Source of the DNA: an uncultured Ignavibacteria bacterium
GTDB taxonomy: Bacteria > Zixibacteria > MSB-5A5 > CAIYYT01
Direction: 5' to 3'
Length of the DNA: 64,000 nt
Assembly (NCBI GenBank): GCA_964584025.1
Contig: CAZOYE010000011.1
Coordinates: 25,588-89,587 of the forward strand
Shown: in pieces, positions 4,725-64,000 of the stretch
Numbering within the stretch: the stretch's first letter is position 1
How the letters are laid out: each line of letters opens with the position of its first letter
Made by a program: the position numbers and the translations under genes
Notes under the pieces: generated by a model
What the model saw: the letters and a program-made list of their open reading frames with translations, nothing else
What the model was told of the DNA's origin: nothing
The model's database searches: none

Positions 4725-4749
4725 AATCCTATGTCGAATCTGACGATCG

Positions 4750-5193: not shown

Positions 5194-5322
5194 CCTTTCC
5201 CTCCGGGACAATCTCGCAAAAATACGGCATTTGGACGAATCTGACGGCTTTCGCCGTTGCGTCCAAGAGCCCACCTTGACTTAACAGCTACATATTATAC
5301 GATATTTTCGCTCTTTTTCAAG

Positions 5323-5721: not shown

Positions 5722-5736
5722 GAGGCCGCCTTCCGC

Positions 5737-7887: not shown

Positions 7888-7905
7888 CGGCGAAACGCAG
7901 CTTTC

Positions 7906-15577: not shown

Positions 15578-15603
15578 ACGAATATTAACTCCTGTCAGGG
15601 GCC

Positions 15604-16914: not shown

Positions 16915-17038
16915 TGTTCTCTCAATTCTGGTCGCAAAGCTAATTGGTCAAACGGTTACGGCAAGCACTATTTATACGAGGTGACCTGCCCGACTGTTCA
17001 GTGGCAGGCGCCATTCGTTCGATGAGGTTGCGTCGAGG

Positions 17039-21496: not shown

Positions 21497-21551
21497 TATT
21501 CAACTCCACGAGTACCCACTCTCAGCAGCCCAACTGGACTGCCATCGGCAA

Positions 21552-43588: not shown

Positions 43589-44722
43589 TTAACTGCCAAT
43601 AGCGTAGAGACGACGTTGGGTAGTGACCACGTAAACGAATTCGTCAATCACGGCAGGAGAGGCGATGATCGTACCGCCGACGTTGACGCGGCCTTCGAGA
43701 GTGCCGTCATGGGCAAACTGATAAACGGAGCCGGCGCTGTTCGCCACAATGAAGGAATTACCGACGGCGATCGGGGAGGCTTGCACGACGCCGTCAGTTT
43801 CGTAGCGCCAGATGATGCCGCCATCTTCGGCGTTAAGGCAGTAGACCGTGCGATCGTCGGAGCCGAAGACGATCCGGTTACCCTTCAGTACCGCCGTGGT
43901 GTGGATCGAATTGACGGTTTGATGACGCCAGACTTCCGTTCCAGTCTCCGTATCCAGCGCTATGAAGCTGCCATCGCCGACGCCGGCGTAGAGGTATTTT
44001 GCGGCGAGCGGTTGAGCAAAGATCGTACTGCCGGTTTCGAAGCGCCACTTCTCGGCGCCGCTGGCGCGATCCAGGGCGATGATCACCCCGCGGTCGGTGC
44101 CGATGTAGACGGAGTTAGAGTCGATCGCCGGCGGCGCGTAGACGTGGGCGCGGAGATCTTGCTCCCACGTTATCTTTCCGGTGAATCGATTCAGAAGCGT
44201 GACCGTGCCGACTCGAGAGACGACAAAGAGATCGTCACCGTCGATGATTGGAGCCGCGGGCGGGTCGATGACTTTGAAGGTCCACAGTTTCTTCCCGTTG
44301 ACCAGGTTCATAGCTGTGAGCTGATCGGAACCTGATTCGTCGGCGAAGTAGAAGAGTTCGTCTTTCAAGGCAACGGCGGAGCCAACGGAAGAACCGGCTT
44401 CGAGTGAAGTGATCTCGTTACCACTGCGCGGGTTGAGGAAGTAGATTCGTTTATTATAAGAGGGCACGATGATGAACTGCGAGTTCCCGACTACCTGACC
44501 GCCAAGCCCACCGTTGAGTTTGCGCTCGAACTTAATGGTGTCGATTGGCGGCAGATCCATCTCGACGACGGCGTTTCCGGTGGCATTAACGCGATGCTGG
44601 GTGAAGCCGACGCCGGAGGGCGGCACCGACTTGAACGCCTTGAAATGGGGGGCGCAGGCGACGAGCGTAAGTACCAGGAGCAGTAGACTCGTCGGCCGCA
44701 TCATGGACGAAGTCGGAATCAT
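43589..44722 (-). CDS. PQQ-like beta-propeller repeat protein (BamB-like)
   Basis: Signal peptide. Repeated YAxxxxDGxxxWxxxxG propeller blades (LYAIGS, VYCLNAEDGGIIWRYET, IIALDRASGAEKWRFETG, etc.). Confidence 0.7.
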   Translation of the reverse strand: MIPTSSMMRPTSLLLLVLTLVACAPHFKAFKSVPPSGVGFTQHRVNATGNAVVEMDLPPIDTIKFERKLNGGLGGQVVGNSQFIIVPSYNKRIYFLNPRSGNEITSLEAGSSVGSAVALKDELFYFADESGSDQLTAMNLVNGKKLWTFKVIDPPAAPIIDGDDLFVVSRVGTVTLLNRFTGKITWEQDLRAHVYAPPAIDSNSVYIGTDRGVIIALDRASGAEKWRFETGSTIFAQPLAAKYLYAGVGDGSFIALDTETGTEVWRHQTVNSIHTTAVLKGNRIVFGSDDRTVYCLNAEDGGIIWRYETDGVVQASPIAVGNSFIVANSAGSVYQFAHDGTLEGRVNVGGTIIASPAVIDEFVYVVTTQRRLYAIGS

Positions 44723-45076
44723 CTACTGATTAGTCCCCTGCCCCGAATGAGTGAAATCGCGCAGCTGTCGTTTGATGTTCTCAATGCGCAATTCGTAATG
44801 CGCGGCGGCACTCCGCGAATCGCGTGAGGCAATTCGCAGCGAGTCGTTCAGCCGCAGGCCGAGATTAAGCATACCGATCAGCGAGTCGAGCGCGGCGGGC
44901 TCCAGAGCCGAAAGGTCGGTTCTGGAGAACAACTGTGCTGAACCGAGGAGTTCCACCTGCTTGTTCATGGCAATGTCCGATGCCGCCGGCGGAACCGGTT
45001 TGAAAAGCGCGGCTGCAGCGCCGATGACCGCCATCAGGATCACGAGCGCTATGACGATGATTCTACCGTTTACCAT
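44723..45076 (-). CDS. small membrane protein of unknown function
   Basis: Single transmembrane helix (IIVIALVILMAVIGAAAALF). Lies between the Omp85-like and BamB-like genes with no gaps. The start is uncertain (a 45115 alternative overlaps the upstream gene). Confidence 0.45.
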   Translation of the reverse strand: MVNGRIIVIALVILMAVIGAAAALFKPVPPAASDIAMNKQVELLGSAQLFSRTDLSALEPAALDSLIGMLNLGLRLNDSLRIASRDSRSAAAHYELRIENIKRQLRDFTHSGQGTNQ

Positions 45077-45086
45077 GGAGACAAGA

Positions 45087-47843: not shown

Positions 47844-47846
47844 GCG

Positions 47847-50384: not shown

Positions 50385-50495
50385 CTGATTAGATATTTAG
50401 AGCGATGTGCTCAAATGCTGCGCTGACGTTCATTGTGAAACAAATGAGCGACAGTCAACTGGGTAAGCTCATGAAGGCAACAGGTTACGGCCCTT

Positions 50496-51689
50496 TTACT
50501 TGAGAAAAAGCAGTTTGAGCGCTCCTGATTTGCCGTATTGACGGCAAAAATAAATGCCGCTGGAAACAACATTTCCTGATGAATCCCGGCCATCCCACAT
50601 GAAGTAGTCTCTCCCATCGACGTTGAAGACGGTCACCAATCGGCGCACTTTGCGACCGAGAAGATCCATGATCACCATCTCCGCGGGGGAATCAGAGACG
50701 ATGGTCGTTTCCGAGTTGAATGGATTGGGGAAGCTCGACATCGAGCCGTTGGATGGGATGTCCTGTGCCGCCTGGTCGCCGGCGCTCGTCATGAGGTCGA
50801 TGAGAAGCGCATCAGACTTCGGCCCCAGATTATCGCCGAGCCAGGCAGCGACTGAAAGGTACTTGCCGTCGATTTCTTCTCGAGAGAAGACATAGTGCAT
50901 CGCCGAGGTGCCAGGCACAATTTGCTCCGGCATAGTAGCGGCTGCATCTCCAATACTGATCATGAAGATCGAAAAGGAATCAGGAAATTCCGCGGAAGGG
51001 GCGAAGCTGCCGATAGTGTCGCAGACGCTATAGGACATGCGCAGATGGACGTTCATATCAGTCAGATCAATCCAGGTGATTGACTCGCCTTCCGGAGTGC
51101 CGAACCACTGCCCCTCGGCGCCGATCGTGTAAGAGACCGCCAAGGCCGGTGCGGACGGAGTTGCTTCGAGCCACTCGACCATGACGTACACGGCATTACC
51201 GACACTGCAAAGCGCTTGAACCGGAAAGCGGCACCATTGCGCCGCTGAAGCGATTGTAGAACAGGCGACAATGTTCTCCCAGAGGGGGGCCTCCGACGAT
51301 GTGCCTGGCAGATGATCATAGATTGCCAGGCGAAACGGCGACATGAAGTCCCCGGGCTCCTCGACGTGCGGATCGCTCGGCCAGAGGCGCAGTTCCACGG
51401 CTTCGACAGCGATCTCCGGCCTTTCAACAGGCAGTTCCCTGACAAATCTGGCGCCGACGTACTCCGACGAATAGAACACAAATGAGATCGGTGTCTCATT
51501 ACGATCGCCGGCGAGTTGGCTGTTTACTCCGGGATAGTACCAGGCGACGACGACACTGTCGTCTCTTGCGGCATAGGAGAGTCCGTATGGCGCGTGGATT
51601 TCATCCGACTTGATTTCAGTTGAAACCGCCATGGCCGCCGCCAGGACGACAGCAAACGGAACCCTTATTTGAGCACCCCTACCATTCAT
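50496..51689 (-). CDS. secreted protein with a T9SS C-terminal sorting domain (CTD)
   Basis: Signal peptide MNGRGAQIRVPFAVVLAAAMAVST. The C-terminal ~80 aa FPNPFNSETTIVSDSPAEMVIMDLLGRKVRRLV...WDGRDSSGNVVSSGIYFCRQYGKSGALKLLFLK matches the Por-secretion CTD pattern (NPFN...DxxGRxV...WDGxxxxGxxxxSGxYF.R......KLLLxK). Confidence 0.75.
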   Translation of the reverse strand: MNGRGAQIRVPFAVVLAAAMAVSTEIKSDEIHAPYGLSYAARDDSVVVAWYYPGVNSQLAGDRNETPISFVFYSSEYVGARFVRELPVERPEIAVEAVELRLWPSDPHVEEPGDFMSPFRLAIYDHLPGTSSEAPLWENIVACSTIASAAQWCRFPVQALCSVGNAVYVMVEWLEATPSAPALAVSYTIGAEGQWFGTPEGESITWIDLTDMNVHLRMSYSVCDTIGSFAPSAEFPDSFSIFMISIGDAAATMPEQIVPGTSAMHYVFSREEIDGKYLSVAAWLGDNLGPKSDALLIDLMTSAGDQAAQDIPSNGSMSSFPNPFNSETTIVSDSPAEMVIMDLLGRKVRRLVTVFNVDGRDYFMWDGRDSSGNVVSSGIYFCRQYGKSGALKLLFLK

Positions 51690-51791
51690 GGATATGTTGG
51701 AAGATATTAGATCGTGCGCTGAGGCGCAAGCCATGAAATGGCTCAAGCATAATAGAATCAGTTCTCGATGATGTAATGATCGAAGAGCGGA

Positions 51792-52652
51792 TTAGTCGCG
51801 CGCCGAACTCAGCAATTCGCCCTTGGTGGTGGAATAGACTTCACGAACGGAGGCGAATTCGAACTCGGAAAGCATGCGGCGAAGTTTGGGTTCGACGGTC
51901 GAGAGATTCGTGTAATGGCGCAGTCGGCTTTTTAAAGCCACGCCGCTCTCGCGCGGTTGATCGGGATCGAGTTCCCAGGGATGAAGGTAGATCATGGCCG
52001 GATAGCCGGCTGCATTATATAAACGAATGGCTCGTCGTGTGTACCAGTACGGAAACATGCGAAAACTTCCGCCGCCACAAGCCGGCAGCCGTTTGCCGAG
52101 AAAGACGCAGGTTACCGGCGGGATTTCCAACAGCCGACCCTGGCTGGTATTGATGAAGTGTGGATAGCGAGGAGCGCTGGGGTCGCCGTAAAGATCGTGG
52201 CGGATCGGATAGATGCTTGAGTCATACTCGATGCCACATTTCACGAGAATTTCCCAGATCCACTCGCGTCCGCGTTCGGCCGAAAAGGTGGGAGCGCGAT
52301 AACCTTTGACCCGGACTCCGGAGGCATCTTCCAAAGCCCCGATCGAGCGGCGGATATCGTCCTCGAATTGCTTCTCGTCGAGGCGTGTCAGCGTATCGTG
52401 GCCGTAGCCGTGGGTCGCCAGTTCGTGGCCGCGCGCCTTGATCATTGCCATAATGTGCGGGAAGCGCTCGGCGAGCCAGCCAAGTGTGAAGAAAGTCGCG
52501 GTGGCGTGATATTCGTCGAGAATATCGAAAATCCGCATCATGTTCATCGTGAGCCGGCTTTGGCGCTTGGACCACTCCGAACGCGGAATGTGGCTGTAAA
52601 ACGCTTCGACCTGGAAGTGCTCTTCCACGTCAAATGACAGAATGTTCTTCAT
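51792..52652 (-). CDS. polysaccharide deacetylase, exopolysaccharide-locus subfamily (XrtA/PEP-CTERM-locus-type)
   Basis: MKNILSFDVEEHFQVEAF N-terminus typical of that subfamily. NodB-like His/Asp residues (HGYGHD). Confidence 0.7.
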   Translation of the reverse strand: MKNILSFDVEEHFQVEAFYSHIPRSEWSKRQSRLTMNMMRIFDILDEYHATATFFTLGWLAERFPHIMAMIKARGHELATHGYGHDTLTRLDEKQFEDDIRRSIGALEDASGVRVKGYRAPTFSAERGREWIWEILVKCGIEYDSSIYPIRHDLYGDPSAPRYPHFINTSQGRLLEIPPVTCVFLGKRLPACGGGSFRMFPYWYTRRAIRLYNAAGYPAMIYLHPWELDPDQPRESGVALKSRLRHYTNLSTVEPKLRRMLSEFEFASVREVYSTTKGELLSSARD

Positions 52653-52655
52653 ATC

Positions 52656-53360
52656 TCACGACTTCTTGGTTGCGTAGTTGTAACCGTAGTACTGATGGTT
52701 GTAGTGGTACGGCAACACGCCGGACACATTGTTCAGTACAACACCGACGATATTCGCATCGGTCTTACTGATTATATCGGCAGCCCGCTTGATAACTTCT
52801 TTCTGCGTTGCTCCTGCCTTGACGACGAGAAGAAGTCCGTCCATGTTTGGACCCAGGACCACCGGGTCGGATACCGGTATTATCGGGGCGCAATCGACGA
52901 AAACCAAGTCAAAATAGAATTTCACCTTTTCAATCGCCTCGATCACTTTATCGCTTTCAAACAGCTCTGTAGGGTTGTGTTTCAGAGTGCCGGCGGTGAG
53001 AATCCAAAGATCGCTGATCTTGGTCGGCTTAAAGGCGTCCTCGGCCTTGGCAGTGCCGTCGATGATATCGGTCACGCCGGGCTCGAGAGGAAGGTCAAAT
53101 ATCTTGTGGATCGTCGGGCGGCGCAGGTCGGCGTCGATAAGGATTGTCTTGCGTTTCTTATAGGAGGCCGCCGTGATCGCCAGATAAGACGACACGGTAG
53201 ACTTCCCCTCCGAGAGCATTGCCGAGGTGACAAGGAAAGACCGTTTCGAGACACCCTTGACAGGCCGGGTGATATTGTGCAGCAGGCGGCGGAATTCGGT
53301 ACCGACAACGGACTCGGGATGGTAATACTCCCAGATCGGTCTGCGCCGCTCCTTGTTCAC
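52656..53360 (-). CDS. CpsD/CapB-type bacterial tyrosine autokinase (cytoplasmic BY-kinase domain)
   Basis: Walker A SAMLSEGKSTVSSYLA, Walker A' ILIDADLRRP, Walker B LVFVDCAP, and a C-terminal tyrosine cluster YHYNHQYYGYNY. Confidence 0.85.
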   Translation of the reverse strand: MNKERRRPIWEYYHPESVVGTEFRRLLHNITRPVKGVSKRSFLVTSAMLSEGKSTVSSYLAITAASYKKRKTILIDADLRRPTIHKIFDLPLEPGVTDIIDGTAKAEDAFKPTKISDLWILTAGTLKHNPTELFESDKVIEAIEKVKFYFDLVFVDCAPIIPVSDPVVLGPNMDGLLLVVKAGATQKEVIKRAADIISKTDANIVGVVLNNVSGVLPYHYNHQYYGYNYATKKS

Positions 53361-53362
53361 AA

Positions 53363-54487
53363 CTATCCTTTCAGGATCGCCTTGACTAAAGCATCGAAGC
53401 CGCGGAATTCGTTCTCCGCGAGGCGCAGGCTCTTCTTTGCGCGCTCGAAGTCCGGATTGATCTTGAGAGCTTCCTGATACTCCTTGATCGCCTTGGAGTG
53501 AATGAACCGCCCCATGAGCGTGTAGGCGACCGCAAGATCGTAGTGAAGGTCCGGGAAATGAGGATTCTTGGCAATGGCGTCCTTGAGATTCTCGATGCGG
53601 CGGCGCAGTGTTTTCTCGTCGATTTTGTCAGTGACGAGCATGAATTTCAGGTAGACGCTGGAGAACTCGCGGAAGCGCTGTTCCTTCTTACGCTCGCGAG
53701 CCAGTACGAGCTTTGTGTAGGCGCCTTCCAGATCGCCCTCGCCAAACAGGCGCCGGCCGTCATCGAAGTTTTTGTCCTGATACTCGGGGCAGACGACAAT
53801 GGCTCGCTCGAGATTTTCGGCGATTTTTTCGGTGGCTTCCGAGAACAGCTTGAAGTCCTCGCGTCTTATCGAATTTAAGACGTAGGTCAGCGCCTTGTTG
53901 TAGTAGGCGTCACCGTAGTAGATGTTGATGGTGATGGCCTCATCGAATTCGATCATGGCGCGCTTGCAGCTCCCGTGCGCCAGATAGGCCTCGCCGAGGT
54001 TGTTGCGATAGTCCGCAAAACGCGGTTGTGAATCGACGCAGCGATTGAAGACTTCGATCGCTTCGGCGAACTTGTTCTGCATCATCAGGACCTGCCCCAG
54101 GTGACACCACTGCTCGTGGCCGTCGGGCCGCAGCGAGACCGCGCGGCGGAACAGGACCTCGGCTTCGTTGTACATCTTCTTGTACATGAGCGCGAGAGCA
54201 AGGTAGTCGATCTGCTCGGCTTCGTTGGAGCTGAGCGCCTCTTTATAACGCTCAAAGATGTGCTCGACTTCTTCTTTGCGTTCTTTGTGGGCGTTCTTCA
54301 CCAGTTCGAGCAGTTCCTGCTCGGGCAGATGCGGGTAGACGTTTTCTTCAACCGTTTCGAGCAACTGACCCTCGGCGAAGATCGACGAGCGAATCTGGTG
54401 ATTCGCCGTGTCGTTCACCGTCTGGATCAGATATTCGCGATCGGTCGAAGCGACCCGCGAGTTGAGTCGATAAGTTTCCATCAGCAC
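53363..54487 (-). CDS. TPR-repeat protein within the exopolysaccharide cluster
   Basis: Multiple canonical 34-aa TPR units (AxxYxxLGxAY-type). Confidence 0.65.
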   Translation of the reverse strand: MLMETYRLNSRVASTDREYLIQTVNDTANHQIRSSIFAEGQLLETVEENVYPHLPEQELLELVKNAHKERKEEVEHIFERYKEALSSNEAEQIDYLALALMYKKMYNEAEVLFRRAVSLRPDGHEQWCHLGQVLMMQNKFAEAIEVFNRCVDSQPRFADYRNNLGEAYLAHGSCKRAMIEFDEAITINIYYGDAYYNKALTYVLNSIRREDFKLFSEATEKIAENLERAIVVCPEYQDKNFDDGRRLFGEGDLEGAYTKLVLARERKKEQRFREFSSVYLKFMLVTDKIDEKTLRRRIENLKDAIAKNPHFPDLHYDLAVAYTLMGRFIHSKAIKEYQEALKINPDFERAKKSLRLAENEFRGFDALVKAILKG

Positions 54488-54490
54488 TTC

Positions 54491-56005
54491 CTATGCCGCC
54501 TTCATTCCCTTGGCTTGCGACGAGGCATCGATATTCGGAATGGTCCCGACCACCTCCAGCCCCAAGAGCTCTTCAATATCTTCAACGCGTTTAATCGAAT
54601 GGTCAACGACCTCGACAACAACGACGGCGCAGCCGCCCAGCACGAGTCCCAGAGCGAGTCCCATCAGGGTGATCTTGCCGCGATCGGGCGAAGAGGGCTC
54701 CAGGGGAATCGTAGCCGGTTCGAGGATCGTATAGCGCGTTTCCGCCTCCGCTTCCTTGCTGGCGCGCGCGATTTTCTGGCGCTGAGCCTCGTCCTGCCAG
54801 TTCAAATATTCTTTCTTCTTTTCTTCAACTTTGTTCTCCAGACGCTTCACCATCTGTTCATAATACGGTTGGCCGGCGATGACGCCCCGAATTTCATTCA
54901 CTGCCGCGGCGAGGATTTCCCGTTTGCGCTGCAGAAAGCTGATTTCGTGAGAGCGGTAGACGAACTCGCCGGCCTCGTTGCGCGCGGCGGTTGCCAGGTT
55001 CGGATACTGCTGCGCAACGATGCGCGTACAGGCAGTTTGCAGTGAATCGAGCGCATCGCGCGTCCGGAGCAGCTGCGATTGGATCTTGCCGTCCTTCCAG
55101 AGATACCGCGAGAGCAGCTCGGCCGTTTCCCGCGTTGACTCCTCGGCGGCGGCTTTGTGGCGGCGGACCTCCGGCGTTACGGCCAGCACTCTTGCGGTGT
55201 CGATCCCTTCCGAGATAAGCTTGCCCGCCAGGAAATTCACCCGGTCAGAAGCTTCACTGGTTTCGATGCGAGTGGCGTCGACTTCCGACTCGATCTGTCC
55301 CAGATTCTGATCGGAATTGATCCCCGCCTGCAGTTGCCGATTGCGGTAGGAAGTCATGAAGTCGGTGAGTTGTTTGTCGGCGTCTTCGTATTCTTTCTTG
55401 GCGATCGAGAGCTGTTTCTCCGCGAGGGACTGGCCTTCGTCACCGGCCAAAACCTGCTCGCTCAGTTTGCGTTCGCGATAGACCTCGGCCAGGGCTGTGG
55501 CCATGCCAGCGGCCTGGCGCGGATTGCGCGAGCGGGCGGTAATGACGACCTGATTTTCCCCGATGAGGCCGACCTCGATATCGTCACGCAATTCCTCGAT
55601 CTGGAGGGTGCGCACCATAGTCGGCAAGTCGTTATCGGGAAAGTCGGATAACATGTTCCGGGCGTCGGCCATCACGCGCTCCGATGGCTCAAGTTTCATT
55701 TGCTCGATCATCCGATTGATATAGCCGGAAGAAGTGATCTCCGAGCGCGTCGCCGCGAGCCAGTACTGGCGCGCCCGAGGTTCGGGCAAGACTCCGGCTT
55801 CGTCCGGGAGCAGCCGCTCGAGTGTTGGTGAGAGGAATTTCTGATTGGAAATCACGACCTTGGTTGCCGATTCGAAAATGGTCGGCAACGCGTAACTGCC
55901 GGCGAAGGCGACTGCTGTGACGACGACCAACGGCGTCACCAGCCAGAACTTCCGCTTCCAAACGATCTGCCAGATGTCGCGCAGTGTGATTTGGCGCTGA
56001 CTCAC
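54491..56005 (-). CDS. polysaccharide chain-length determinant protein (Wzz/GumC family; BY-kinase transmembrane activator)
   Basis: Wzz N-terminal motif (LRDIWQIVWKRKFWLVTPLVVV). Large periplasmic coiled-coil region. C-terminal transmembrane helix (ITLMGLALGLVLGGCAVVVV). Confidence 0.8.
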   Translation of the reverse strand: MSQRQITLRDIWQIVWKRKFWLVTPLVVVTAVAFAGSYALPTIFESATKVVISNQKFLSPTLERLLPDEAGVLPEPRARQYWLAATRSEITSSGYINRMIEQMKLEPSERVMADARNMLSDFPDNDLPTMVRTLQIEELRDDIEVGLIGENQVVITARSRNPRQAAGMATALAEVYRERKLSEQVLAGDEGQSLAEKQLSIAKKEYEDADKQLTDFMTSYRNRQLQAGINSDQNLGQIESEVDATRIETSEASDRVNFLAGKLISEGIDTARVLAVTPEVRRHKAAAEESTRETAELLSRYLWKDGKIQSQLLRTRDALDSLQTACTRIVAQQYPNLATAARNEAGEFVYRSHEISFLQRKREILAAAVNEIRGVIAGQPYYEQMVKRLENKVEEKKKEYLNWQDEAQRQKIARASKEAEAETRYTILEPATIPLEPSSPDRGKITLMGLALGLVLGGCAVVVVEVVDHSIKRVEDIEELLGLEVVGTIPNIDASSQAKGMKAA

Positions 56006-56970
56006 TCTCCCAACCTGTCAATAAGCAGAACGGTCGATGTGATTGTCGTCCCTAACGTGATGATGTCACGGAATAGATTGAACCCGCTGCCGACTCCACC
56101 CGAGCGCGCCGGGATGTAAATGGCATCCTCGGGCTTGAGCAGATAGCGCTGCGGGCTGCCGGTTTTGAGCTGTTTGTCGAGATTCACCTCGTAAACATTG
56201 GCGTAGTCGCCGCTCTTGGAAGAGACGCGGATCTTCTTGAGGTCGGCATCCGGCGTGGTGCCTCCAGCCAGCGCGATCGCCTCAATCAGATCAAGGCGGG
56301 CATCCAGCGTGTACGCATTCGGCCGAGTCACAGCGCCAACGATGTAGAAAACGTTACGTTTGGCTTCACTTTCGGCAAGATTGATATTCGTCGGCACGCC
56401 GCCCAGAGTGGGAGGCACGCGAATGATGTCCTTTGCATGCACTTCCGGGAGTTGCGAAAAATCGCGCGATCGAATCGCCGAGAGTACGTCGACGGTGAGC
56501 ACGGTGCCTGGATCAACGGCGCCGCCGCGGATCAGGCGGACATTGGTTAAGTCGCCGGTAGCAGTCGGGCCGCCCATTTCCTTAATGACCGTCCAGATAT
56601 CAGGAATGACTTCCCTGGCATATCTGCCTGGAGAAACAACCTCACCTTCAACAAAAACGGTCTGAGAATTGAAAGCCGTGACGACAACGGTGGCCTGGCT
56701 GATGTCGCGATTAAATCGCGAGACTTGCTCGACGATCTTACGGGATAGTTGCGATGTGGTCAAGCCGGCCGCCGTGATTTCACCGATGACTGAAAGGGTG
56801 ATTTTGCCGTCGGCATTCACAACAACCGACTGGTCGAGAGTAGGCGCCTGCCAGAACGAGACCTGCAGAACATCATCAATCCCGATGACGTAGTCTGCTA
56901 GGGCGCTCTGCGGGGCCGCTAACCCGAGAAAAACCAGCAACAAGATGGGTAGTAATAACTTCCGAGTCAT
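56002..56970 (-). CDS. polysaccharide export protein (Wza/EpsE-like; Poly_export + SLBB domains)
   Basis: Signal peptide. DYVIGIDDVLQVSFWQAPTLD...NADGKITLSVIGEITAAGLT is the Poly_export signature. Followed by SLBB-like repeats. Confidence 0.8.
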   Translation of the reverse strand: MTRKLLLPILLLVFLGLAAPQSALADYVIGIDDVLQVSFWQAPTLDQSVVVNADGKITLSVIGEITAAGLTTSQLSRKIVEQVSRFNRDISQATVVVTAFNSQTVFVEGEVVSPGRYAREVIPDIWTVIKEMGGPTATGDLTNVRLIRGGAVDPGTVLTVDVLSAIRSRDFSQLPEVHAKDIIRVPPTLGGVPTNINLAESEAKRNVFYIVGAVTRPNAYTLDARLDLIEAIALAGGTTPDADLKKIRVSSKSGDYANVYEVNLDKQLKTGSPQRYLLKPEDAIYIPARSGGVGSGFNLFRDIITLGTTITSTVLLIDRLGE

Positions 56971-56975
56971 AACTC

Positions 56976-58715
56976 CTACTTCTTCACGGTAATCAGATTT
57001 TCATCGAACATAAATGACTTATTCTTGCCGGTGCTCTTCGCCTGCAAGAGCGCCATGTCGGCACAATATATTAATCGGTCAATCCGTTGTGCGTCATTAG
57101 GATAAATCGCTCCCCCCAGTGATACGGTGATTTTGAGACTGGCGGGAGTGAATTTGTCGCGGAATTCGTTTTCGAGAATGGCGTTGCGCAAGCGATCCAT
57201 GAAATTTATGCAGTCGGCGGCGTTGGTATCAGGCATAACAATACAGAACTCCTCGCCTCCATAGCGCGACACGATATCGATAGAGCGTACCGACTTAGTC
57301 AGGAGTCCGCCAAGCTGCTCCAACAGAAAATCTCCTGATTGATGACCGTAAGTATCGTTAAAAACCTTGAACCCGTCAACATCAAAGATGACCAGGCCGA
57401 GGTGGCGATTAAATCGCTGGGCGCGAGTCATTTCCTGCTGAAGCCGCTTGTAGAAGTAGCGGTAGTTGTAGAGACCGGTCATCTCGTCGGTGTACGAAAG
57501 CCGCTCGATTTTCTCGAAATTGGTGAGGTTGTCGAGGATCAAGCCGAACATGCGGCTGAAGGTTGAGAAGACCTCGATATTCTCCGGGCTGAATTTCTCC
57601 GGCGGGCAGTTCATCCCGATATATCCATCTCGCGGATTGGAGCCGTTCAAAAATCCCAGGCAACGAATACCGGCCGCCTTTAACTGGGCAATTGCCTCCG
57701 AGCCGTCCTGGGAGTAGGCCTCCAGAGAAAGGACAGGCCTCTCAGGGCTGAGGAGTTCGAACAAGGAATGATTGGCCGCCAACGTGAAGTCAGCGGGGAG
57801 ATTCGGGAGCTTTCCCCGATCTCCTTGACGCGTGACCGTGCGCCTTTCGGCGTCATGAACCAGAAGAACCGCTGAATCAACTTTGAACTCCTCCGCAAGC
57901 AGCCGCAGGTAGGCCGCGTAGAGCTTGTTGCGATCGTAGATCCGCGCCAGCTTATCGAGCGCCGAAATGAGTACGGTGGGGTTGCGGCGATTCGCGGTCT
58001 CATGCGATGAGCGGTCGTTTTTGAGTGCATCGAGCTGCTGACGCAGTTTCTGGACGGTGAGGTTATGTTTGTAAGTAGCATCGTCGAGATGCTTGAAATT
58101 TCCGACCTGGTCAGCCAGCGACAACAAGAAGGGCCGGATGATTCGAAACGGCACGTCCTGAGGCGTGGAGAAGGCGATGAAATAGTTGCAGCGCCCGCTT
58201 GTCAGAACCGGCACGGCCTGATCGAACGGATGGGGGTCATTGCCCTGGCTGCCGTCCCCGGGGTAGACCTTGCGAAACGGAATCGATGATTCCCGTTTTT
58301 CCAGCATGTGCTCGAGTTCGGGACGGAAGAGGACGCGATAGTTTTTGAGACTTTCGCGCTCTGCGCCAAAGAGATCGGTCAGCATGTAGCCGCGCTTGCG
58401 GCGGGCGAAGACGGCTACCGTGTTAAGTCCAAAATCGTCGTGAAAATAGCGGGCGAGCGAGGTCACCTGTTGATCGAGTTGTCGGCGCTGCGAGAAGTCC
58501 TTGTGAATCTGCTCGACCTGGTGCAGGTAGAGGCGCACGATGGTTTCGAGGCGATCGGTGCCTCGTCTTCTCAGCAGGATAGCATAGCTAAAACCACCGA
58601 CGAGGGCGACGACGATCGCCGCCACAAGCAGCGGGCGCGACCATTGATCGACAAGCAAAGCTCCGCCGATCAGCGCCGTAATGGTCGCCATCAAAGCTGC
58701 CAGAAAATAGAGCAT
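56976..58715 (-). CDS. membrane-anchored diguanylate cyclase (GGDEF) with a GAF-like sensor
   Basis: Two N-terminal transmembrane helices. Central GAF-like region. C-terminal GGDEF domain with RYGGEEFCIVMP and product-inhibition-site-like RxxD. Confidence 0.85.
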   Translation of the reverse strand: MLYFLAALMATITALIGGALLVDQWSRPLLVAAIVVALVGGFSYAILLRRRGTDRLETIVRLYLHQVEQIHKDFSQRRQLDQQVTSLARYFHDDFGLNTVAVFARRKRGYMLTDLFGAERESLKNYRVLFRPELEHMLEKRESSIPFRKVYPGDGSQGNDPHPFDQAVPVLTSGRCNYFIAFSTPQDVPFRIIRPFLLSLADQVGNFKHLDDATYKHNLTVQKLRQQLDALKNDRSSHETANRRNPTVLISALDKLARIYDRNKLYAAYLRLLAEEFKVDSAVLLVHDAERRTVTRQGDRGKLPNLPADFTLAANHSLFELLSPERPVLSLEAYSQDGSEAIAQLKAAGIRCLGFLNGSNPRDGYIGMNCPPEKFSPENIEVFSTFSRMFGLILDNLTNFEKIERLSYTDEMTGLYNYRYFYKRLQQEMTRAQRFNRHLGLVIFDVDGFKVFNDTYGHQSGDFLLEQLGGLLTKSVRSIDIVSRYGGEEFCIVMPDTNAADCINFMDRLRNAILENEFRDKFTPASLKITVSLGGAIYPNDAQRIDRLIYCADMALLQAKSTGKNKSFMFDENLITVKK

Positions 58716-58727
58716 AGACTATCGGTT

Positions 58728-58768
58728 TATATAATCAGCGGCGAGCGCGGTTGCAAGCGCAAAGCCAC
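58728..58768 (-). promoter_or_regulatory. overlapping sigma-54-type (-24/-12) and sigma-70-type promoter signals upstream of the GGDEF-EPS operon
   Basis: Minus strand TGGCTTTGCGCTTGCAA: TGGCTT-N5-TTGCA, spacing 12. The same TTGCAA (58751-58756) plus a 17-nt spacer and TATATA (58728-33) gives a sigma-70 consensus. 12 nt to the ATG. Confidence 0.4.
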
Positions 58769-58798
58769 GCAACCCTTCGGCGTCGGGTGCGCTCCCGG

Positions 58799-59533
58799 TC
58801 AGGCCTTGCGACTATAACGAAAGCGGTTCTTTTTGGACAAAAGCGAATGGCGGCGGAGAATGCTCCAGACGCCCCACCAACCGATCTTCTGGCCATCCCC
58901 GTTGGCATCGCTGCGAATAATGCGCACGATTTCGCCAATGGAGTAGAAGGGGTCGGTCTTGACCAGGCTGAGCACGAGGCTCTCTACGCTGGGGCGAGCG
59001 GTGACTGACGGAGCGGTTTTTGTCTCCGGCGGGGTCACTGCCGAGGCCTTGATTCGGGCCGTCGGCAGATCGGCTTCGGCTGTGGCGACTTCGACCTGGC
59101 GGGCGATGGATGCTTTTTCGGCTTCCTTCTGGTTATGCTGGCGGACTTCCGCGGCGGCGTCTTCACCGGAATGCCCGTTGCCACGAAACTCGATTTTGGC
59201 CTTTTCGATATTGTCGTAGGCTTTCAAGATCGAGTCGAATTCAAGCAGCTCGAAGATCTCATAGACACTGGGGATCATTCGCGCGAGTTTGATGTCGCCG
59301 GAGTTGGACTTGATCTCGCGGATATTGCTGATGAAGATGCCCCAGCCGGCGGAAGAGATATAATCGACGCCGGCAAGATCGATGATGATCTTGTAGCGCT
59401 TCTGCTCCATCAGCGAGTTCATGACGCGTTCGAGTTCGGATGAGGTCATCGTGTCGATGACACCGTCGACGCGCACCAGAGTGACGTCGCCGCTTTGCCC
59501 GGCCGTATCCAGAGAGATTCTTATGTCGTCCAT
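58799..59533 (-). CDS. STAS-domain protein (anti-sigma-factor antagonist-like) with a C-terminal extension
   Basis: TLVRVDGVIDTMTSSELERVMNSL...IIDLAGVDYISSAGWGIFI is a STAS/SpoIIAA fold signature. The extra ~120 aa C-terminal region is Ala/Glu-rich. Confidence 0.75.
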   Translation of the reverse strand: MDDIRISLDTAGQSGDVTLVRVDGVIDTMTSSELERVMNSLMEQKRYKIIIDLAGVDYISSAGWGIFISNIREIKSNSGDIKLARMIPSVYEIFELLEFDSILKAYDNIEKAKIEFRGNGHSGEDAAAEVRQHNQKEAEKASIARQVEVATAEADLPTARIKASAVTPPETKTAPSVTARPSVESLVLSLVKTDPFYSIGEIVRIIRSDANGDGQKIGWWGVWSILRRHSLLSKKNRFRYSRKA

Positions 59534-60312
59534 GCCTGCTTCTCGTCCTTTGCGGCCGCCACCGGATGGCCGTTTTGTGAATAGTTGGCGATTTCCTTTG
59601 CGAACAAGAAGTAATCGAGCGCACCGTTGGAATAAGGCGCATGTTCGAACACCGTCTTGTATAACATCTGCGATTCTTTCAGTTGCGTGTTGATCCGGAT
59701 CTTGGATGCAAACAACTTGTCACCGTACTCCGTGAGCAACTGGTTGTAGATCGTTTTTGAGACCTTGGTCCTCGTGTCAAAAAACGTCGCGAGAATCCCC
59801 AGCAACTCGACCTTGCGGCCGATTTTCCGGTAAAGATCGTCAAGTAACTTAAGGGTCTTCTTGGCGCCCTCACAAGCAAAAAAATCCATCGAGACCGGGA
59901 TCACGACGCCGTCGACGTAGTTGAGGACATTCATATTGATCAGGTTGATTGCCGGGGGGCAATCGCAAATCACGTAATCGGTGCCGCGCAGATTTTCGAG
60001 CACCTGCCGGAGGCGCTGTTCGCGGTCGACCTGGCGCGCCAGGAACAACTCCGTTTCGACGATGCGCGTGTTCCCGGAATCGATCAAGAAGAGGTTGGGG
60101 CGCAGCGGCGCGATCTCGACTTCTCCGGTTGTGAGGAGTTCTGCCAGACCCTTCTGCGGCTGGACGTTGAAAGCCATCGACACGTTCGCCTGGCTGTCGC
60201 AGTCGACGATAAGGGTCCTCTTCCCCGACATGGCGAGACAATGCGCCAGGTTGATCACCGTGGTGGTCTTGCCGGTTCCGCCTTTACAGGTTATGACCGC
60301 AATTTTCTTCAA
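59521..60312 (-). CDS. ParA/MinD-family P-loop ATPase
   Basis: Deviant Walker A KGGTGKTTTVINLA. DCDSQANVS motif. Confidence 0.85.
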   Translation of the reverse strand: MKKIAVITCKGGTGKTTTVINLAHCLAMSGKRTLIVDCDSQANVSMAFNVQPQKGLAELLTTGEVEIAPLRPNLFLIDSGNTRIVETELFLARQVDREQRLRQVLENLRGTDYVICDCPPAINLINMNVLNYVDGVVIPVSMDFFACEGAKKTLKLLDDLYRKIGRKVELLGILATFFDTRTKVSKTIYNQLLTEYGDKLFASKIRINTQLKESQMLYKTVFEHAPYSNGALDYFLFAKEIANYSQNGHPVAAAKDEKQAWTT

Positions 60313-63131
60313 TCTTTTTCATCCTTGCGTTGATCGCCGAGGAGACGTTTTTCGTAATCGGCAAATGAGAGCGAAGGTTCCGCGTCGGGCAGCTCCACCG
60401 TTTCGAGACTGATCCCCTCTTCGGCGCGTTTTTGCCATTCCTTCTCGTCGACAGTCTCGAGACGCGCCGTCGACAAGACGTTGCGCTTCTCGGCCTCGCG
60501 GTCCAGTTCCTTGACTCGGCCGGCGACACGGTCAAATAATAAACGCAACTGATCGGCGGATATTTGACCTTCCATCTCTTCAAACATGGCGGTCAAGACA
60601 TCGGTGCGCTCGTCGTCGACGCCCAATTCGCGTAAGCGATCTTTAAAAGCCGCGAGTTTGTCGTCTTCTTGTTTCTGCAAGTTGTCCTTGATCTGGCCCA
60701 GGTAGGCGGCACGATCCAGGGTCGGATGGGGCGACTCCACCTTCTGCGCCAGCTTGAGGTACTCCTGCTCCTGCTCGGCCGTAAGGGTTCCGCCGAAGCG
60801 GCGGGCAAACTCATAACGTTGGCGTTTGGTGTTAAGCCGTAGGCGCACCAGTTCGGAGTAGATCGTGCGGTCCTCAACACCGACATCTCCCGCCTGCTCG
60901 AGTTCACGTTTGATGCGTGTGGGGCCGTAGTCCGGGTTCTTGCGGATGATCTCGAGCACGGCATTGCGCTCGTTGTAAGAGAGTTGCGCCGGAGCATCGT
61001 CGACGCGCAGGGTCTTATTGAGGAGGCCCTCTTCGCCGAACTGCTCAAAGCGCTTCTTGTAACGATAATAGGTTGAAGTCGAGAGTCCCATCATGCGGCA
61101 CGCTTCCGCCACCGGGACTCTCTGGACATCCACCATTTCGAGCAGTTTCTTGCGGCGGGCGAAGATGTATTCGTCGGCCTCGACCTTTTCCTTGATCGCG
61201 ACCATCGTGATATCGTCGTTCTGCTCGGCGCCCTGGGTGAACTTGCCGAGGTCTTCTTCGAACTTCTCGGCGAATTCATCCGGCGACAGATCCGAGTTGT
61301 CGCGGATGAACTGCAGGAACTTCTCCATGCCGTATTGCTGTTTGCGCGGGTTCATCGCCTCGGTGATACCATCGGTATAGATCACCAGCATGTCGCCCTT
61401 TTTGAGGCGCACGCCCTGGCTCTCGAGATTTTCCTCGAAACTGACTCCGTCAGGCAAGGTTATGCCAAGCGGAATGCCGCGCGGGTTCATGAAGAAGGTT
61501 TTGTCCTCGTCCTTGCGGTAGAGAATCATCGGATTGTGCCCGGCCGAGGCGAAGGAGATTTTGCGCTGCTGGGTGTCGATGACGACCATGAAGATCGTGA
61601 TGAACATCCCTTTGCGGACATCCTCGGTGACGAATTCGTTGACGTTGCAGAGAATATCTACCGGCGAGCGGGCGCCGCGCGACTCGAGGCGAATCGCGGT
61701 GCGGATCATGGTCATCACGAGCGAGCCGGGGACGCCTTTTCCGGAAACGTCGGCCACCACGATACCGAGCGTTTTTTCGTCGAGCCAGACGAAATCGTAG
61801 TAGTCGCCGCCGACGTCCTTGGCCGCGCGATAGATGGTCGCGATGTCGAAGCCCTCGATATCGGGGAAACTCTTGGGCAGCAGCGTGTGCTGGATATCCT
61901 GCGCCACCTGCATCTCTTTGCGCATGCGCTCCTGCTCGACGACGTTGGCCTGGGCTTCTTTGAACTTCACGCGCATCTCATTGAAGGCTTCGGCGATGGC
62001 ATTGTATTCGGCGGCGCCTTCGACTTCGATCTTGGAATCGAGGTCGCCCTTGCCGATGCGCCGCACACCGTCGATCAGGCGTTGAATCGGCCGCACGAAA
62101 TAGTTCGAGAGCAGGTAGACCGCGCCTATAACGATAAACATCGCGATAGCGACGGTTACGAGAATAGTCTGGCGCGCTTCGGCGATGCCCTCGAGCAGGC
62201 GTTCTTCACCGAAGCCGACGTGCAATCTCCCATATGAATTGGCCTGGTAGTTGATCGATTCGACGACGTGATGCAGGCTGCCCCCGTCCTCTGCGACGTA
62301 GGGTTGCGCGACACCGGTTCGATCCGCATCGATACCGTCCGGAGGCTCGTAGGTCGTGTGCAATCGTTCGGGGAGATCGGTTGAGGCAAGGACCTTGTTC
62401 TCCCGGTCGACGACGAAGATGTAGCGAACATCCTGATTCTGGCGCGCGAAGTTCCGGACAAACTCGTCGAACTCGACGTCTGAGGAACGATTGATGAAGT
62501 GATTGGCCGCCTGTGCCGCGATGGCGTTGCCGTATTCGGCGATCGACGCGCTAAATTGCTCCTGCCGCCAAATGACCATGCGCGTTTCCCAGAGGAAGTA
62601 GACCGAGACGATAACGGCGGTCATGATCAGCGAGGTCCAAAGCGCGAATTTCCAGCGGATCGAAACGCCTTCGGTTTTTGCTACCGGTTCGGGCTTAATG
62701 TCCGGGTAACGCTTGACAAGCTTGAGTTCGTTGACGCCGGCGTTGGTGGAGTAGGAGACATCGTCGGTGACTTTGCGAATCAGGTAGATTCCCAAGCCGC
62801 CCTTGCGCCCGGTCTTGATGTAGTGATCGAGATTGGGATCGGTCAGCTTGTCGAAATCGAAACTGCGGCCGCGATCGTAAATGGAGACGCCCATGCGATC
62901 TTTAAAGAGCGATAGGCGGAGCTTGATCGTGCCTTCGCCATAGAGGTAGGCGTGGCGGATAACGTTGGTGCATGCCTCTTCAATTGCCAGAAGAATCGCG
63001 GTCGTGTCCTTACGGCGAAACGGAGTCTCGGCAAGAACCGTCTCGACGAAACTGCGAATGTCCGGCAGCTTAGCTTCCTGCGCCGGAAATTCGGCAAAGA
63101 TTTCTTTCGTGGGACGGGAGAAGAGTCTCAT
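60309..63131 (-). CDS. multidomain partner-switching signalling protein: RsbW-like HATPase_c kinase + 2 TM/periplasmic sensor + HAMP + PP2C (SpoIIE/RsbU) phosphatase + C-terminal transposase-derived HTH/coiled-coil region
   Basis: N-terminus AILLAIEEACTNVIRHAY...GGLGIYLIRKVTDDV is the anti-sigma-regulatory-factor kinase fold. Two transmembrane helices bracket a ~170-aa sensor region. HAMP domain (IQRLIDGVRRIGKGDLDSKIE). PP2C motifs (GGDYYDF, DVSGKGVPGSLVMT, TDGITEA). C-terminal VPVAEACRMMGLSTSTYYRYKKRFEQFGEEGLL...AVLEIIRKNPDYGPTRIKRELEQAG resembles the IS481/IS3 transposase N-terminal DNA-binding region; no DDE domain follows. Confidence 0.8.
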   Translation of the reverse strand: MRLFSRPTKEIFAEFPAQEAKLPDIRSFVETVLAETPFRRKDTTAILLAIEEACTNVIRHAYLYGEGTIKLRLSLFKDRMGVSIYDRGRSFDFDKLTDPNLDHYIKTGRKGGLGIYLIRKVTDDVSYSTNAGVNELKLVKRYPDIKPEPVAKTEGVSIRWKFALWTSLIMTAVIVSVYFLWETRMVIWRQEQFSASIAEYGNAIAAQAANHFINRSSDVEFDEFVRNFARQNQDVRYIFVVDRENKVLASTDLPERLHTTYEPPDGIDADRTGVAQPYVAEDGGSLHHVVESINYQANSYGRLHVGFGEERLLEGIAEARQTILVTVAIAMFIVIGAVYLLSNYFVRPIQRLIDGVRRIGKGDLDSKIEVEGAAEYNAIAEAFNEMRVKFKEAQANVVEQERMRKEMQVAQDIQHTLLPKSFPDIEGFDIATIYRAAKDVGGDYYDFVWLDEKTLGIVVADVSGKGVPGSLVMTMIRTAIRLESRGARSPVDILCNVNEFVTEDVRKGMFITIFMVVIDTQQRKISFASAGHNPMILYRKDEDKTFFMNPRGIPLGITLPDGVSFEENLESQGVRLKKGDMLVIYTDGITEAMNPRKQQYGMEKFLQFIRDNSDLSPDEFAEKFEEDLGKFTQGAEQNDDITMVAIKEKVEADEYIFARRKKLLEMVDVQRVPVAEACRMMGLSTSTYYRYKKRFEQFGEEGLLNKTLRVDDAPAQLSYNERNAVLEIIRKNPDYGPTRIKRELEQAGDVGVEDRTIYSELVRLRLNTKRQRYEFARRFGGTLTAEQEQEYLKLAQKVESPHPTLDRAAYLGQIKDNLQKQEDDKLAAFKDRLRELGVDDERTDVLTAMFEEMEGQISADQLRLLFDRVAGRVKELDREAEKRNVLSTARLETVDEKEWQKRAEEGISLETVELPDAEPSLSFADYEKRLLGDQRKDEKD

Positions 63132-63215: not shown

Positions 63216-64000
63216 TCAATTGGTTTTGCCGTTTGATTGAAGTCTTAGTTTAGCTTGAACGATGTTCTTTTCGGTTTCGGGATTCCCCGGATACTTTGCC
63301 AACACCTGTTCCCAGAGGCGAATGGCTTCGGCATACGCGCCATTGCGGAACTTATCGATGCCGTCGAGATAGAGCTTCCACACCGCACCATCTTTCTGAA
63401 TTTCGCTCAGGGGGATAGCGCCAGCCGACCTGCCGTTGTCAAGCTTGCTCAGGAGCTCCAATGCTACAGTGTCCTGCGGATTGCTTGAGAGCGCTTGAGA
63501 CAGGAACTGGCGAGCCTGTACGGTGTCGCCGGCACTGTAAGCGGCCACACCGGACCGCAGCAGTCCCAAGGAGGCAATGCGATTATTGATCTGAATCAAG
63601 CTGCGTTGGGCGGCCTGATCGCCGGGATTGAGTTTGAGGATTTCGCCGTAACTCACAGCGGCATCGCTGTACTTGCCGGCATTGGCCTGGCGCGTGGCCT
63701 CAGTGCGCAGCGCCGTGATTCGGTCACCTGTCAGGAGGTTGTACTCGGCTTCGCTTTGCTGGAACCGCTGGTCGGCTCCAAAGGCGGGGCGCAGCCGCGA
63801 GAGCATCACTGAAGCAGCCTCGAGATCCTTGACATCGAGCGCCTCCCGCAGTTCGCCGAAGAGCTCTGCCGCCTTGGCTGAGTCGGTTTCGGCGAGCACG
63901 CCGGCGCGCACGGAAGCGGTCAGTTGGTCGGTGCGCTGGCGGTCGATCTCGGCAAGACGCTCGTCGGCCTCATCGCTGTTGTTGCCGGTCAGTACGTAGA
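63216..64000 (-). CDS. TPR-repeat protein (5' end runs off the window)
   Basis: TPR units throughout. The reading frame continues without stops to position 64000. Confidence 0.6.
   Translation of the reverse strand, partial: YVLTGNNSDEADERLAEIDRQRTDQLTASVRAGVLAETDSAKAAELFGELREALDVKDLEAASVMLSRLRPAFGADQRFQQSEAEYNLLTGDRITALRTEATRQANAGKYSDAAVSYGEILKLNPGDQAAQRSLIQINNRIASLGLLRSGVAAYSAGDTVQARQFLSQALSSNPQDTVALELLSKLDNGRSAGAIPLSEIQKDGAVWKLYLDGIDKFRNGAYAEAIRLWEQVLAKYPGNPETEKNIVQAKLRLQSNGKTN

Follow-up and report, generated by a model that had tools for sequence, protein, structure and literature searches.

We studied a block of genes at 51.8-64 kb of a 64,000-nucleotide (nt) stretch of contig CAZOYE010000011.1, the whole of which we call the window. 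From its sequence and that of its relatives we propose, at a probability of roughly 55%, that this block encodes a partner-switching module similar to SypE/SypA of Vibrio fischeri and wired to an exopolysaccharide operon. At its core lie a membrane protein in which a serine kinase and a PP2C phosphatase are fused around a sensor, a Soj/ParA-like ATPase, and a STAS protein that ends in a predicted helix-turn-helix (HTH) domain; a diguanylate cyclase gene and polysaccharide export genes follow. Every gene of the block is on the minus strand and, read 5' to 3' along that strand, the order is kinase/PP2C fusion, ParA, STAS, GGDEF cyclase, Wza, Wzz, TPR, BY-kinase and deacetylase. The kinase/PP2C and ParA genes overlap by 4 nt and the ParA and STAS genes by 13 nt. 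Domains were called with Pfam and NCBIfam scans of the window proteins, and these bore out the gene order and domain content given in the first-pass annotation, including its claim that kinase and phosphatase are fused around a transmembrane sensor and that a ParA-like ATPase is inserted. The features on which the argument rests are the following.

60309..63131, minus strand: fusion protein of kinase, transmembrane sensor, HAMP and PP2C, 940 residues (Pfam, NCBIfam, motifs, transmembrane segments)
62712..63089, minus strand: HATPase_c_2 kinase domain of the fusion, residues 15-140 (PF13581, 4e-26; RsbW models, 1e-19)
61191..61778, minus strand: SpoIIE/PP2C phosphatase domain of the fusion, residues 452-647 (PF07228, 4e-50)
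60819..61157, minus strand: transposase-type HTH_28/HTH_32 module of the fusion, residues 659-771 (PF13518 and PF13565)
59521..60312, minus strand: Soj/ParA-type ATPase, 263 residues (ParA/AAA_31, 5e-37; Soj alignment)
58799..59533, minus strand: STAS protein, 244 residues, with STAS domain, disordered linker and C-terminal winged-helix/HTH (scans, alignment, AlphaFold models)
59351..59353, minus strand: codon of Ser61, the predicted phospho-acceptor (SpoIIAA/TM1442 alignment; invariant in 34 sequences)
58802..59002, minus strand: C-terminal domain of the STAS protein, residues 178-244, four helices and the basic tail KKNRFRYSRK (alignment, AlphaFold models)
56976..58715, minus strand: membrane diguanylate cyclase, 579 residues, two transmembrane segments and GGDEF (PF00990, 5e-43)
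51792..56970, minus strand: whole export block (Pfam/NCBIfam)

The fusion protein opens with an RsbW-type kinase domain in which both the N-box (E51..N56..H60) and the G1 box (D86xGxxF) are present. Two transmembrane segments (residues 161-181 and 316-347) enclose a predicted extracytoplasmic loop of ~135 residues and are followed by a HAMP domain (residues 340-387, 2e-11) and by a PP2C domain that has all four metal-binding motifs (GGDYYD441, ADVSGKG460, YTDGITE585 and DDIT639). While the kinase, HAMP and PP2C parts had been recognized in the first-pass annotation, the HTH_28/HTH_32 module at residues 659-771 and the acidic tail of ~165 residues after it had been overlooked. The module corresponds to the N-terminal 112 residues of an IS481 transposase model (1.6e-18), and no DDE catalytic domain was found 3' of it in the Pfam and NCBIfam scans. 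An insertion sequence or fusion artefact was considered as its origin and ruled out: the module is kept in 32 of 40 related loci, down to ~35% identity, and no DDE domain comes after it.

The STAS domain of the third protein occupies residues 13-112 (4e-17). A phmmer search against the PDB sequences aligned its DYISSAGWG, the region in which the first-pass annotation proposed to look for a phosphorylatable Ser or Thr, with SYMDSAGLG of TM1442 and FMDSSGLG of SpoIIAA, which places Ser61 at the phospho-Ser of both. Counted along the alignment, Ser61 is chain position 57 of 1auz, which we take to be Ser58, the phospho-site in the numbering of full-length SpoIIAA; the 1tid chain has an Ala at exactly the Ser61-equivalent position. 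Ser60 and Ser61 are invariant in an alignment of 34 homologues that reaches down to 51% identity, and Ser61 sits inside an 18-residue stretch, DYISSAGWGIFISNIREI, that is invariant in these 34 proteins. Because of the alignment to SpoIIAA/TM1442 and of the invariance of both serines, the predicted phospho-acceptor is judged present and strongly conserved. Kinase, PP2C and STAS protein together form a complete and apparently active partner-switching set. The window region and the inspected neighbourhoods of related loci showed no gene for a sigma factor.

The first-pass annotation had called this gene simply a STAS protein, which holds for its STAS domain but leaves out a folded C-terminal domain (residues ~183-243). 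Full-length homologues measure 225-265 residues and are built from the STAS domain, a low-complexity linker that varies, and a C-terminal domain of ~65 residues that is conserved and marked by DPF, E, GWW, L and the basic end KKxRFRYSR. No Pfam family matched this domain at E<=1 and its profile found nothing meaningful among the PDB sequences (best E 0.14); its identity came from fold and profile searches only. AlphaFold2, supplied with the family alignment, predicted four helices with a predicted local distance difference test score (pLDDT) of ~90, both in the full protein and for the tail alone, and a fold search matched the predicted fold to DNA-binding winged-helix-turn-helix (wHTH) and HTH domains. 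Comparison of the tail profile with sensor residues 655-787 in hhalign gave a probability of 86% (E 5e-6), and the two domains share the ending L-x-[ST]-K-[KR]-x-R-[FY]-x-[FY]-[SA]-R. Moreover, a tblastn search with the sensor HTH region hit the STAS tail at 38-41% identity in five loci of the type C layout described below (L135, L138, L142, L146 and L147). On the strength of these hhalign and tblastn matches, we conclude from sequence that the STAS protein and its own kinase/phosphatase carry paralogous HTH_32-type domains.

When searched against 1.8 billion representative proteins, the tail profile retrieved 145 proteins, with the STAS family itself and short proteins among them, and some of the matches partly overlap the Pfam HTH_32 region. 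The short (~90 residues) stand-alone matches were considered as a separate architecture and this was rejected, as at least some of them are N-terminally truncated STAS proteins (P0122, P0144 and P0163). Proteins P0205, P0210 and P0229, from other bacteria, contain two tandem HTH_28/HTH_32 pairs joined via transmembrane segments to a glycosyltransferase of family 2 (GT2), and the second HTH of each pair matches the STAS-tail profile. From a QxxRW-type motif, these GT2 fusions read as processive synthases.

To place the module among its relatives we used a wider family of 98 loci that encode the STAS-HTH protein, after a metagenome scan with the STAS alignment had added 80 loci; each count given here is restricted to the loci with sufficient flank. 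A search with the fusion protein led to loci of metagenome-assembled genomes (MAGs) labelled Zixibacteria or, in one third-party assembly set, 'uncultured Ignavibacteria', and our Zixibacteria set consists of the 12 genome loci that reach beyond the STAS gene. The STAS protein had 1436 database matches, and the STAS-HTH family is characteristic of, and widespread among, uncultured sediment bacteria, namely Zixibacteria, KSB1 and related lineages. The order of the window, from an outer-membrane/TPR gene upstream of the fusion through to the deacetylase, is kept in 12 of 12 Zixibacteria genome loci, the exceptions being the cyclase of L007 and some insertions, and this synteny reaches down to 49% fusion-protein identity (L018). 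The overlap between the ParA and STAS genes also recurs in the Zixibacteria genome loci. Across the wider family, a PP2C domain lies upstream of STAS in 37 of 40 loci, a kinase domain in 30 of 32 and the outer-membrane/TPR gene in 25 of 28, whereas downstream a Wza gene is found in 21 of 31 and a GGDEF gene within 5.5 kb in 22 of 36, plus L002, where it stands behind an insertion. The constant partners of the STAS-HTH protein are thus the kinase/PP2C sensor and the outer-membrane/TPR gene.

Three layouts can be told apart. Type A, that of the window, combines the sensor HTH with ParA and has export genes in 18 of the 19 loci with downstream flank. Type B has neither sensor HTH nor ParA, and the cyclase and export genes are present in L119 and L139 but not in L100 and L104. 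Type C has the sensor HTH and a long C-terminal extension without ParA (L136, L146, L153 and the KSB1 locus L020); none of its six scored loci contains cyclase or export genes, and the downstream genes are unrelated. In addition, the STAS-HTH gene of L094 directly heads a cyclase-export operon, and the 10 kb upstream of it contain no kinase/PP2C gene.

We then consider the operon that the switch may control. Its cyclase looks active from sequence: the GGEEF motif at 486 and the RxxD I-site (RSID at 477) are both intact, and the protein scores 173 bits against the TIGR00254 cutoff of 37. Between the transmembrane segments and the GGDEF domain lies a cytoplasmic region of ~350 residues in which no domain was recognizable, and the N-terminal region had no matches among the PDB sequences. 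The Wza gene begins 5-12 nt after the cyclase in all 11 Zixibacteria genome loci that have both genes, while 34-300 nt separate the two in metagenome loci that are more distant. Because Wza follows so closely in the Zixibacteria loci, the cyclase gene behaves like the head of the export operon and not like the tail of the signalling operon. Two promoter-like features lie in front of it.

58752..58767, minus strand: sigma-54-like TGGCTT-N5-TTGCA (window and L006 only; judged to be chance)
58727..58757, minus strand: sigma-70-like CTTGCA-N17-TTATATAA, ending 11 nt before the cyclase ATG (invariant columns of a 5-locus alignment)

The first of these corresponds to the sigma-54 promoter suggested in the first-pass annotation, which did not survive comparison. 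Among 16 orthologous STAS-cyclase intergenic regions, TGG[CT]NN-N5-TTGC[AT] occurs only in L006, a relative locus 98% identical to the window, and in none of the 15 others; the TTGC half of the motif is the -35-like part of a conserved element. The sigma-54 promoter was therefore dropped in favour of this sigma-70-like element, in which an alignment of five loci shows an invariant CTTGC, 17-19 nt, TTATATAA, 11-12 nt and the ATG. The element is present in the window and in 10 related loci, all of the window's subclade, and it stays with the cyclase gene in loci with genes inserted upstream. It reads as a sigma-70-type -35/-10 pair with a very short leader, and the position of TTATATAA implies a leaderless or very short-leader cyclase mRNA without a Shine-Dalgarno sequence. 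Since TTATATAA (58727-58734) is a perfect palindrome, invariant in the 10 related loci, it could be a candidate operator besides a -10 element. A consensus scan found no terminator between STAS and cyclase (58716-58798). Elsewhere in the window, at 10520-13170, an NtrC-type sigma-54 activator (REC, Sigma54_activat and HTH_8) adjoins a PAS histidine kinase, and because of this activator gene the organism probably uses sigma-54.

In the mechanism that we favour, the membrane protein would sense an extracytoplasmic cue through its ~135-residue loop and its HAMP domain. The cue would tip the balance between the N-terminal RsbW-type kinase and the C-terminal PP2C, as REC does in SypE (PMC10120452), and we infer that this balance sets the phosphorylation of Ser61 on the STAS protein. 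The latter would be the output, with one of its phospho-forms turning on the adjacent and separately promoted operon; by analogy with SypA and SiaC, the active form would most likely be the unphosphorylated one. Expression of the cyclase, as first gene of the operon, and of the Wza, Wzz and BY-kinase genes would then raise cyclic di-GMP (c-di-GMP) and polysaccharide export, the cyclase supplying c-di-GMP to the export or synthesis machinery. The least secure step of the model is how the switch reaches the operon. Most likely it acts through the wHTH domain of the STAS protein, which may bind DNA at the operon promoter or dock on the paralogous HTH of the sensor, and docking would amount to a phospho-dependent sequestration of the STAS protein at the membrane. 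We favour action through the HTH because this output domain is built into the STAS protein; we give less weight to the possibility that the STAS protein does no more than bind the cyclase. As for the Soj-like ATPase, it would be an accessory that travels with the export genes and that probably helps to place or assemble the export machinery, as BcsQ does.

SypE/SypA is the closest known system in both logic and domain order. SypE has the order kinase-REC-PP2C and controls Ser56 of SypA inside the syp polysaccharide locus (PMC4517449, PMC10120452). The two systems have in common a single protein with an N-terminal RsbW-type kinase, a C-terminal PP2C and a sensory module between them, a conserved Ser in the STAS protein, a STAS gene in or next to an exopolysaccharide locus, and a STAS protein that would serve as output and not as an anti-sigma antagonist (PMC4517449, PMC10120452, PMC8256260). 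They differ in that the central module of SypE is a REC domain, whereas here it is a transmembrane segment-loop-transmembrane segment-HAMP arrangement in which no REC domain was found. SypA is a single-domain protein, while the STAS protein described here adds a linker and a wHTH; likewise, the fusion adds an HTH_28/HTH_32 module and an acidic tail. Moreover, the window has a Soj-like ATPase gene between those of the fusion and the STAS protein and a diguanylate cyclase gene at the head of the export operon, and the organisms are of another phylum.

Several observations weigh against a SypE/SypA-like switch of this operon. The first-pass annotation had pointed to gene order in relatives as the place to look, and there the link to cyclase and export genes is frequent and found across module types, but about one third of the loci have the module without these genes (types B' and C; for example L020, L100, L136 and L146); therefore, the output of the module is not obligatorily this operon. 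The promoter-like element is confined to the window's subclade and is missing in more distant loci. Among the export proteins, none was identified as a c-di-GMP receptor. Finally, all of the relatives are uncultured MAGs or metagenome contigs.

The best-placed alternative, which we nevertheless hold to be unlikely, is a circuit of the Hsb/Sia type, in which one phospho-form of the STAS protein would bind and switch the cyclase directly and the HTH tail and ParA would be peripheral. It draws on the position of the cyclase gene, which comes after STAS in 22 of 36 loci and right next to it in L094, on the ~350-residue cytoplasmic region of the cyclase as a potential docking site, on the extreme conservation of the STAS surface, which suggests several protein partners, and on experimental precedents of STAS-like proteins that bind cyclases (PMC5085249, PMC8457831). 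The cyclase is missing, however, in L007, L092, L096 and L121 while ParA, STAS and Wza persist; it is also absent from all six loci with an HTH-bearing sensor but no ParA, and from L020. Unrelated genes split STAS from cyclase in four loci (L002, L005, L013 and L024), in which the inserted gene, 249 residues long in L005 (14599-15348), was guessed to be methyltransferase-like; the insertion in L002 (14544-18226) adds a gene of 952 residues, guessed to encode a Ser/Thr kinase with TPR repeats. Besides, the cyclase has a conserved promoter-like element of its own and heads the export operon, and a direct circuit leaves the strictly conserved HTH tail unexplained. The STAS-cyclase link in the manner of HsbA-HsbD, as proposed in the first-pass annotation, found no support in the tests made here, and the HTH domains on the STAS protein and on the fusion point to a different or additional output.

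The known systems of this group are SiaABCD and HptB-HsbR-HsbA-HsbD. In Pseudomonas aeruginosa, SiaA, SiaB and SiaC control the cyclase SiaD (PMC7647112, PMC8457831), and the likeness to SiaABCD lies in a transmembrane-HAMP-PP2C phosphatase, an RsbW-like kinase, and a switch protein that leads to a cyclase and to aggregation (PMC7647112, PMC8457831). SiaC is a different protein from the STAS protein described here, with Thr68 as its phosphorylation site, and its likeness to anti-sigma factor antagonists is described at the level of structure only (PMC7647112). Among the NCBIfam models, that of SiaA ranks with the best matches of the sensor and that of SiaD with the best matches of the cyclase, but both fall far under their equivalog cutoffs (69.9 bits against 700 for SiaA, 150.5 against 290 for SiaD), which counts against a circuit of the Hsb/Sia type. 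To our knowledge, SiaD has not been described as a membrane protein. The Sia kinase is a separate protein, and the Sia operon has no HTH, ParA or export genes. In the HptB-HsbR-HsbA-HsbD system of the same species, which resembles the window in its dual kinase and PP2C enzyme, its STAS phospho-Ser (Ser56) and its neighbouring membrane cyclase, phosphorylated HsbA binds the GGDEF domain of HsbD (PMC5085249). Compared with HsbR, the fusion described here lacks REC, has the reversed domain order and is membrane-anchored. HsbR is a soluble REC-PP2C-kinase protein fed by a phosphorelay, HsbA has FlgM as a further partner, and HsbD has six transmembrane segments and no long cytoplasmic N-terminal region; the Hsb system is also devoid of export genes, HTH and ParA. 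Of the parallel with Hsb drawn in the first-pass annotation, the idea of a partner switch linked to c-di-GMP and exopolysaccharide was retained, but SypE/SypA and SiaABCD are closer relatives in design than HsbR/A/D.

The ATPase raises a further alternative. Its residues 2-243 align to Soj of Thermus thermophilus (1wcv, E 7e-38), its best solved relative, and it has the deviant Walker A motif KGGTGKT at residues 10-16. BcsQ, a ParA/MinD-type ATPase of a polysaccharide secretion system, was the top NCBIfam model (1e-25), below its cutoff. We rejected the possibility of a second BY-kinase, for which the models gave ~1e-14, far weaker than Soj/ParA or BcsQ. The protein therefore resembles Soj/ParA and BcsQ in its full-length Soj similarity and its deviant Walker A but differs from them in that its gene sits between those of a Ser kinase/phosphatase and of a STAS-HTH protein. 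No ParB, BcsR or BcsE partner gene lies next to it; in place of ParB, it is flanked by genes for HTH-bearing proteins, which are conceivable adaptors. ParA is present in 31 of 61 related loci, and only in loci whose sensor also bears an HTH. Of the ParA loci whose downstream flank is long enough, 18 of 19 also have export genes, compared with 5 of 17 other loci (counts not corrected for phylogeny). Because ParA tracks the export genes more than the switch, a role for the Soj-like ATPase in assembling or positioning the export system, by analogy with BcsQ, seems more likely to us than one as a core component of the switch.

Alternatively, the STAS-HTH protein would be a phospho-regulated, ParB-like adaptor whose basic tail stimulates the Soj-like ATPase; through the nucleoid or the HTH of the membrane sensor, the two together would position the apparatus for polysaccharide export. 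This is a doubtful reading, with somewhat poorer prospects than direct control of the cyclase. Speaking for it are the recurrent ParA-STAS overlap (13 nt in the window), the full-length alignment to Soj with a retained deviant Walker A, and the basic peptide KKxRFRYSR that ends the STAS tail. The ATPase also retains the Arg of the TFFDTRT motif, which we take to be Soj R189, required for DNA binding. The restriction of ParA to loci with an HTH-bearing sensor and the export genes in 18 of 19 of these loci point the same way, and within the limited set of literature searched there was no description of a ParA-like ATPase linked to a STAS domain, of a fusion between STAS and HTH, or of a partner-switch operon that includes a ParA gene. 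Half of the family, however, has the same STAS-HTH protein and basic tail without a neighbouring ParA, so the tail is not dedicated to ParA, and common descent within a single clade could explain why ParA and export genes go together.

The weakest alternative is that the adjacency is coincidental and the module regulates something else, such as a distant sigma factor or envelope functions linked to the outer-membrane/TPR protein. In its favour are the constant partners of the STAS-HTH protein, which are the outer-membrane/TPR and kinase/PP2C genes and neither cyclase nor export genes, the promoter-like element that the cyclase operon has of its own, and the unrelated type C neighbours (DUF456, DUF4159, DUF4175 and a patatin/POTRA/Omp85 protein after the STAS-HTH gene at 10725-18161 of L146; obg, dprA and gltX around the module of the KSB1 locus L020). 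We nevertheless hold this alternative to be improbable, given that the adjacency to cyclase and export genes recurs at 50-60% STAS identity with and without ParA and HTH, that the STAS gene of L094 heads such an operon, and that the inspected neighbourhoods contain no sigma factor gene.

The export block that a SypE/SypA-like switch would control consists of five genes.

56002-56970, minus strand: Wza-like protein (Pfam/NCBIfam)
54491-56005, minus strand: Wzz/PCP-like protein (Pfam/NCBIfam)
53363-54487, minus strand: TPR protein of 374 residues (Pfam/NCBIfam)
52656-53360, minus strand: BY-kinase (TIGR01007, above the curated cutoff)
51792-52652, minus strand: XrtA-type deacetylase (TIGR03006, 339 bits against a cutoff of 276)

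In this block, curated cutoffs are passed by two proteins alone, the deacetylase and the BY-kinase, the latter with the generic model TIGR01007. The models for other proteins of XrtA loci stayed below theirs, with 102 against 180 for the export protein, 114 against 279 for the chain-length determinant and 129 against 231 for the XrtA-type kinase. The part of the window that was scanned (~8.7-64 kb) yielded no glycosyltransferase, polymerase or exosortase. As regards the 374-residue TPR protein, a likely orthologue is encoded directly after the STAS gene in L100, L104, L124 and L132, loci without export genes; that of L100 (10769-11809) is 29% identical over 229 residues (E 3e-13). In the KSB1 locus L020 (3913-7701), the kinase/PP2C protein carries a TPR region as a C-terminal fusion. 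Because of these STAS-adjacent orthologues and of the fusion in L020, the TPR protein may belong to the signalling module and not to export.

Upstream of the fusion gene the block runs into the end of the window.

63216..64000, minus strand: 3' part of the gene of an outer-membrane beta-barrel-like and TPR protein, cut by the window end (open frame, L006 orthologue)

This frame is open to base 63998. A 231-residue open reading frame with a GTG start at 63216-63911 was discarded as an artefact of the window edge, the L006 orthologue being 615 residues long. The N-terminus of this orthologue has weak FadL/UPF0164 matches and its C-terminus TPR repeats. Further upstream in L006, at 3795-8069, a protein of 1424 residues carries CARDB and FlgD_ig/CHU_C-like C-terminal domains of the kind found in the type IX secretion system (T9SS), which hints at a link between the module and the cell surface or T9SS cargo. 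On the other side of the block, past the deacetylase, window positions 43589-51746 encode a 416-residue protein with a weak match to a T9SS sorting tail, whose gene is syntenic in L006, L007 and L011, an 845-residue HEAT-repeat protein, a 918-residue Peptidase_MA/PD40 protein and a BamB-like beta-propeller. At 14168-22877 there are two GWxTD-domain proteins, followed by a MacB-type ABC permease pair, an HlyD-type adaptor and an OEP outer-membrane channel.

As far as we know, biofilm regulation in Zixibacteria, KSB1 and related sediment bacteria is unstudied, and a search of the literature on Zixibacteria and exopolysaccharide returned nothing relevant. Even for SypA, the best-studied STAS protein linked to exopolysaccharide, the downstream target is still unknown (PMC4517449, PMC8256260). 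In the family described here a candidate output domain, the wHTH, forms a fixed part of the STAS protein, and the sensor bears a paralogous copy, which offers a concrete idea of how such switches reach their targets. If confirmed, the connection of a partner switch with a Soj-like ATPase would be notable, as would the recurrence of HTH_28/HTH_32 modules on processive GT2 synthases. One speculative extension, for which we see only a slim chance, is that the STAS-wHTH protein, the paralogous sensor HTH and the Soj-like ATPase make up a system tethered to nucleoid or membrane that places or licenses the polysaccharide export machine. If this were true, a partner switch would drive a ParA-type positioning system instead of a sigma factor or a cyclase, and the HTH module on GT2 synthases would be a general, previously undescribed regulatory handle of exopolysaccharide machinery.

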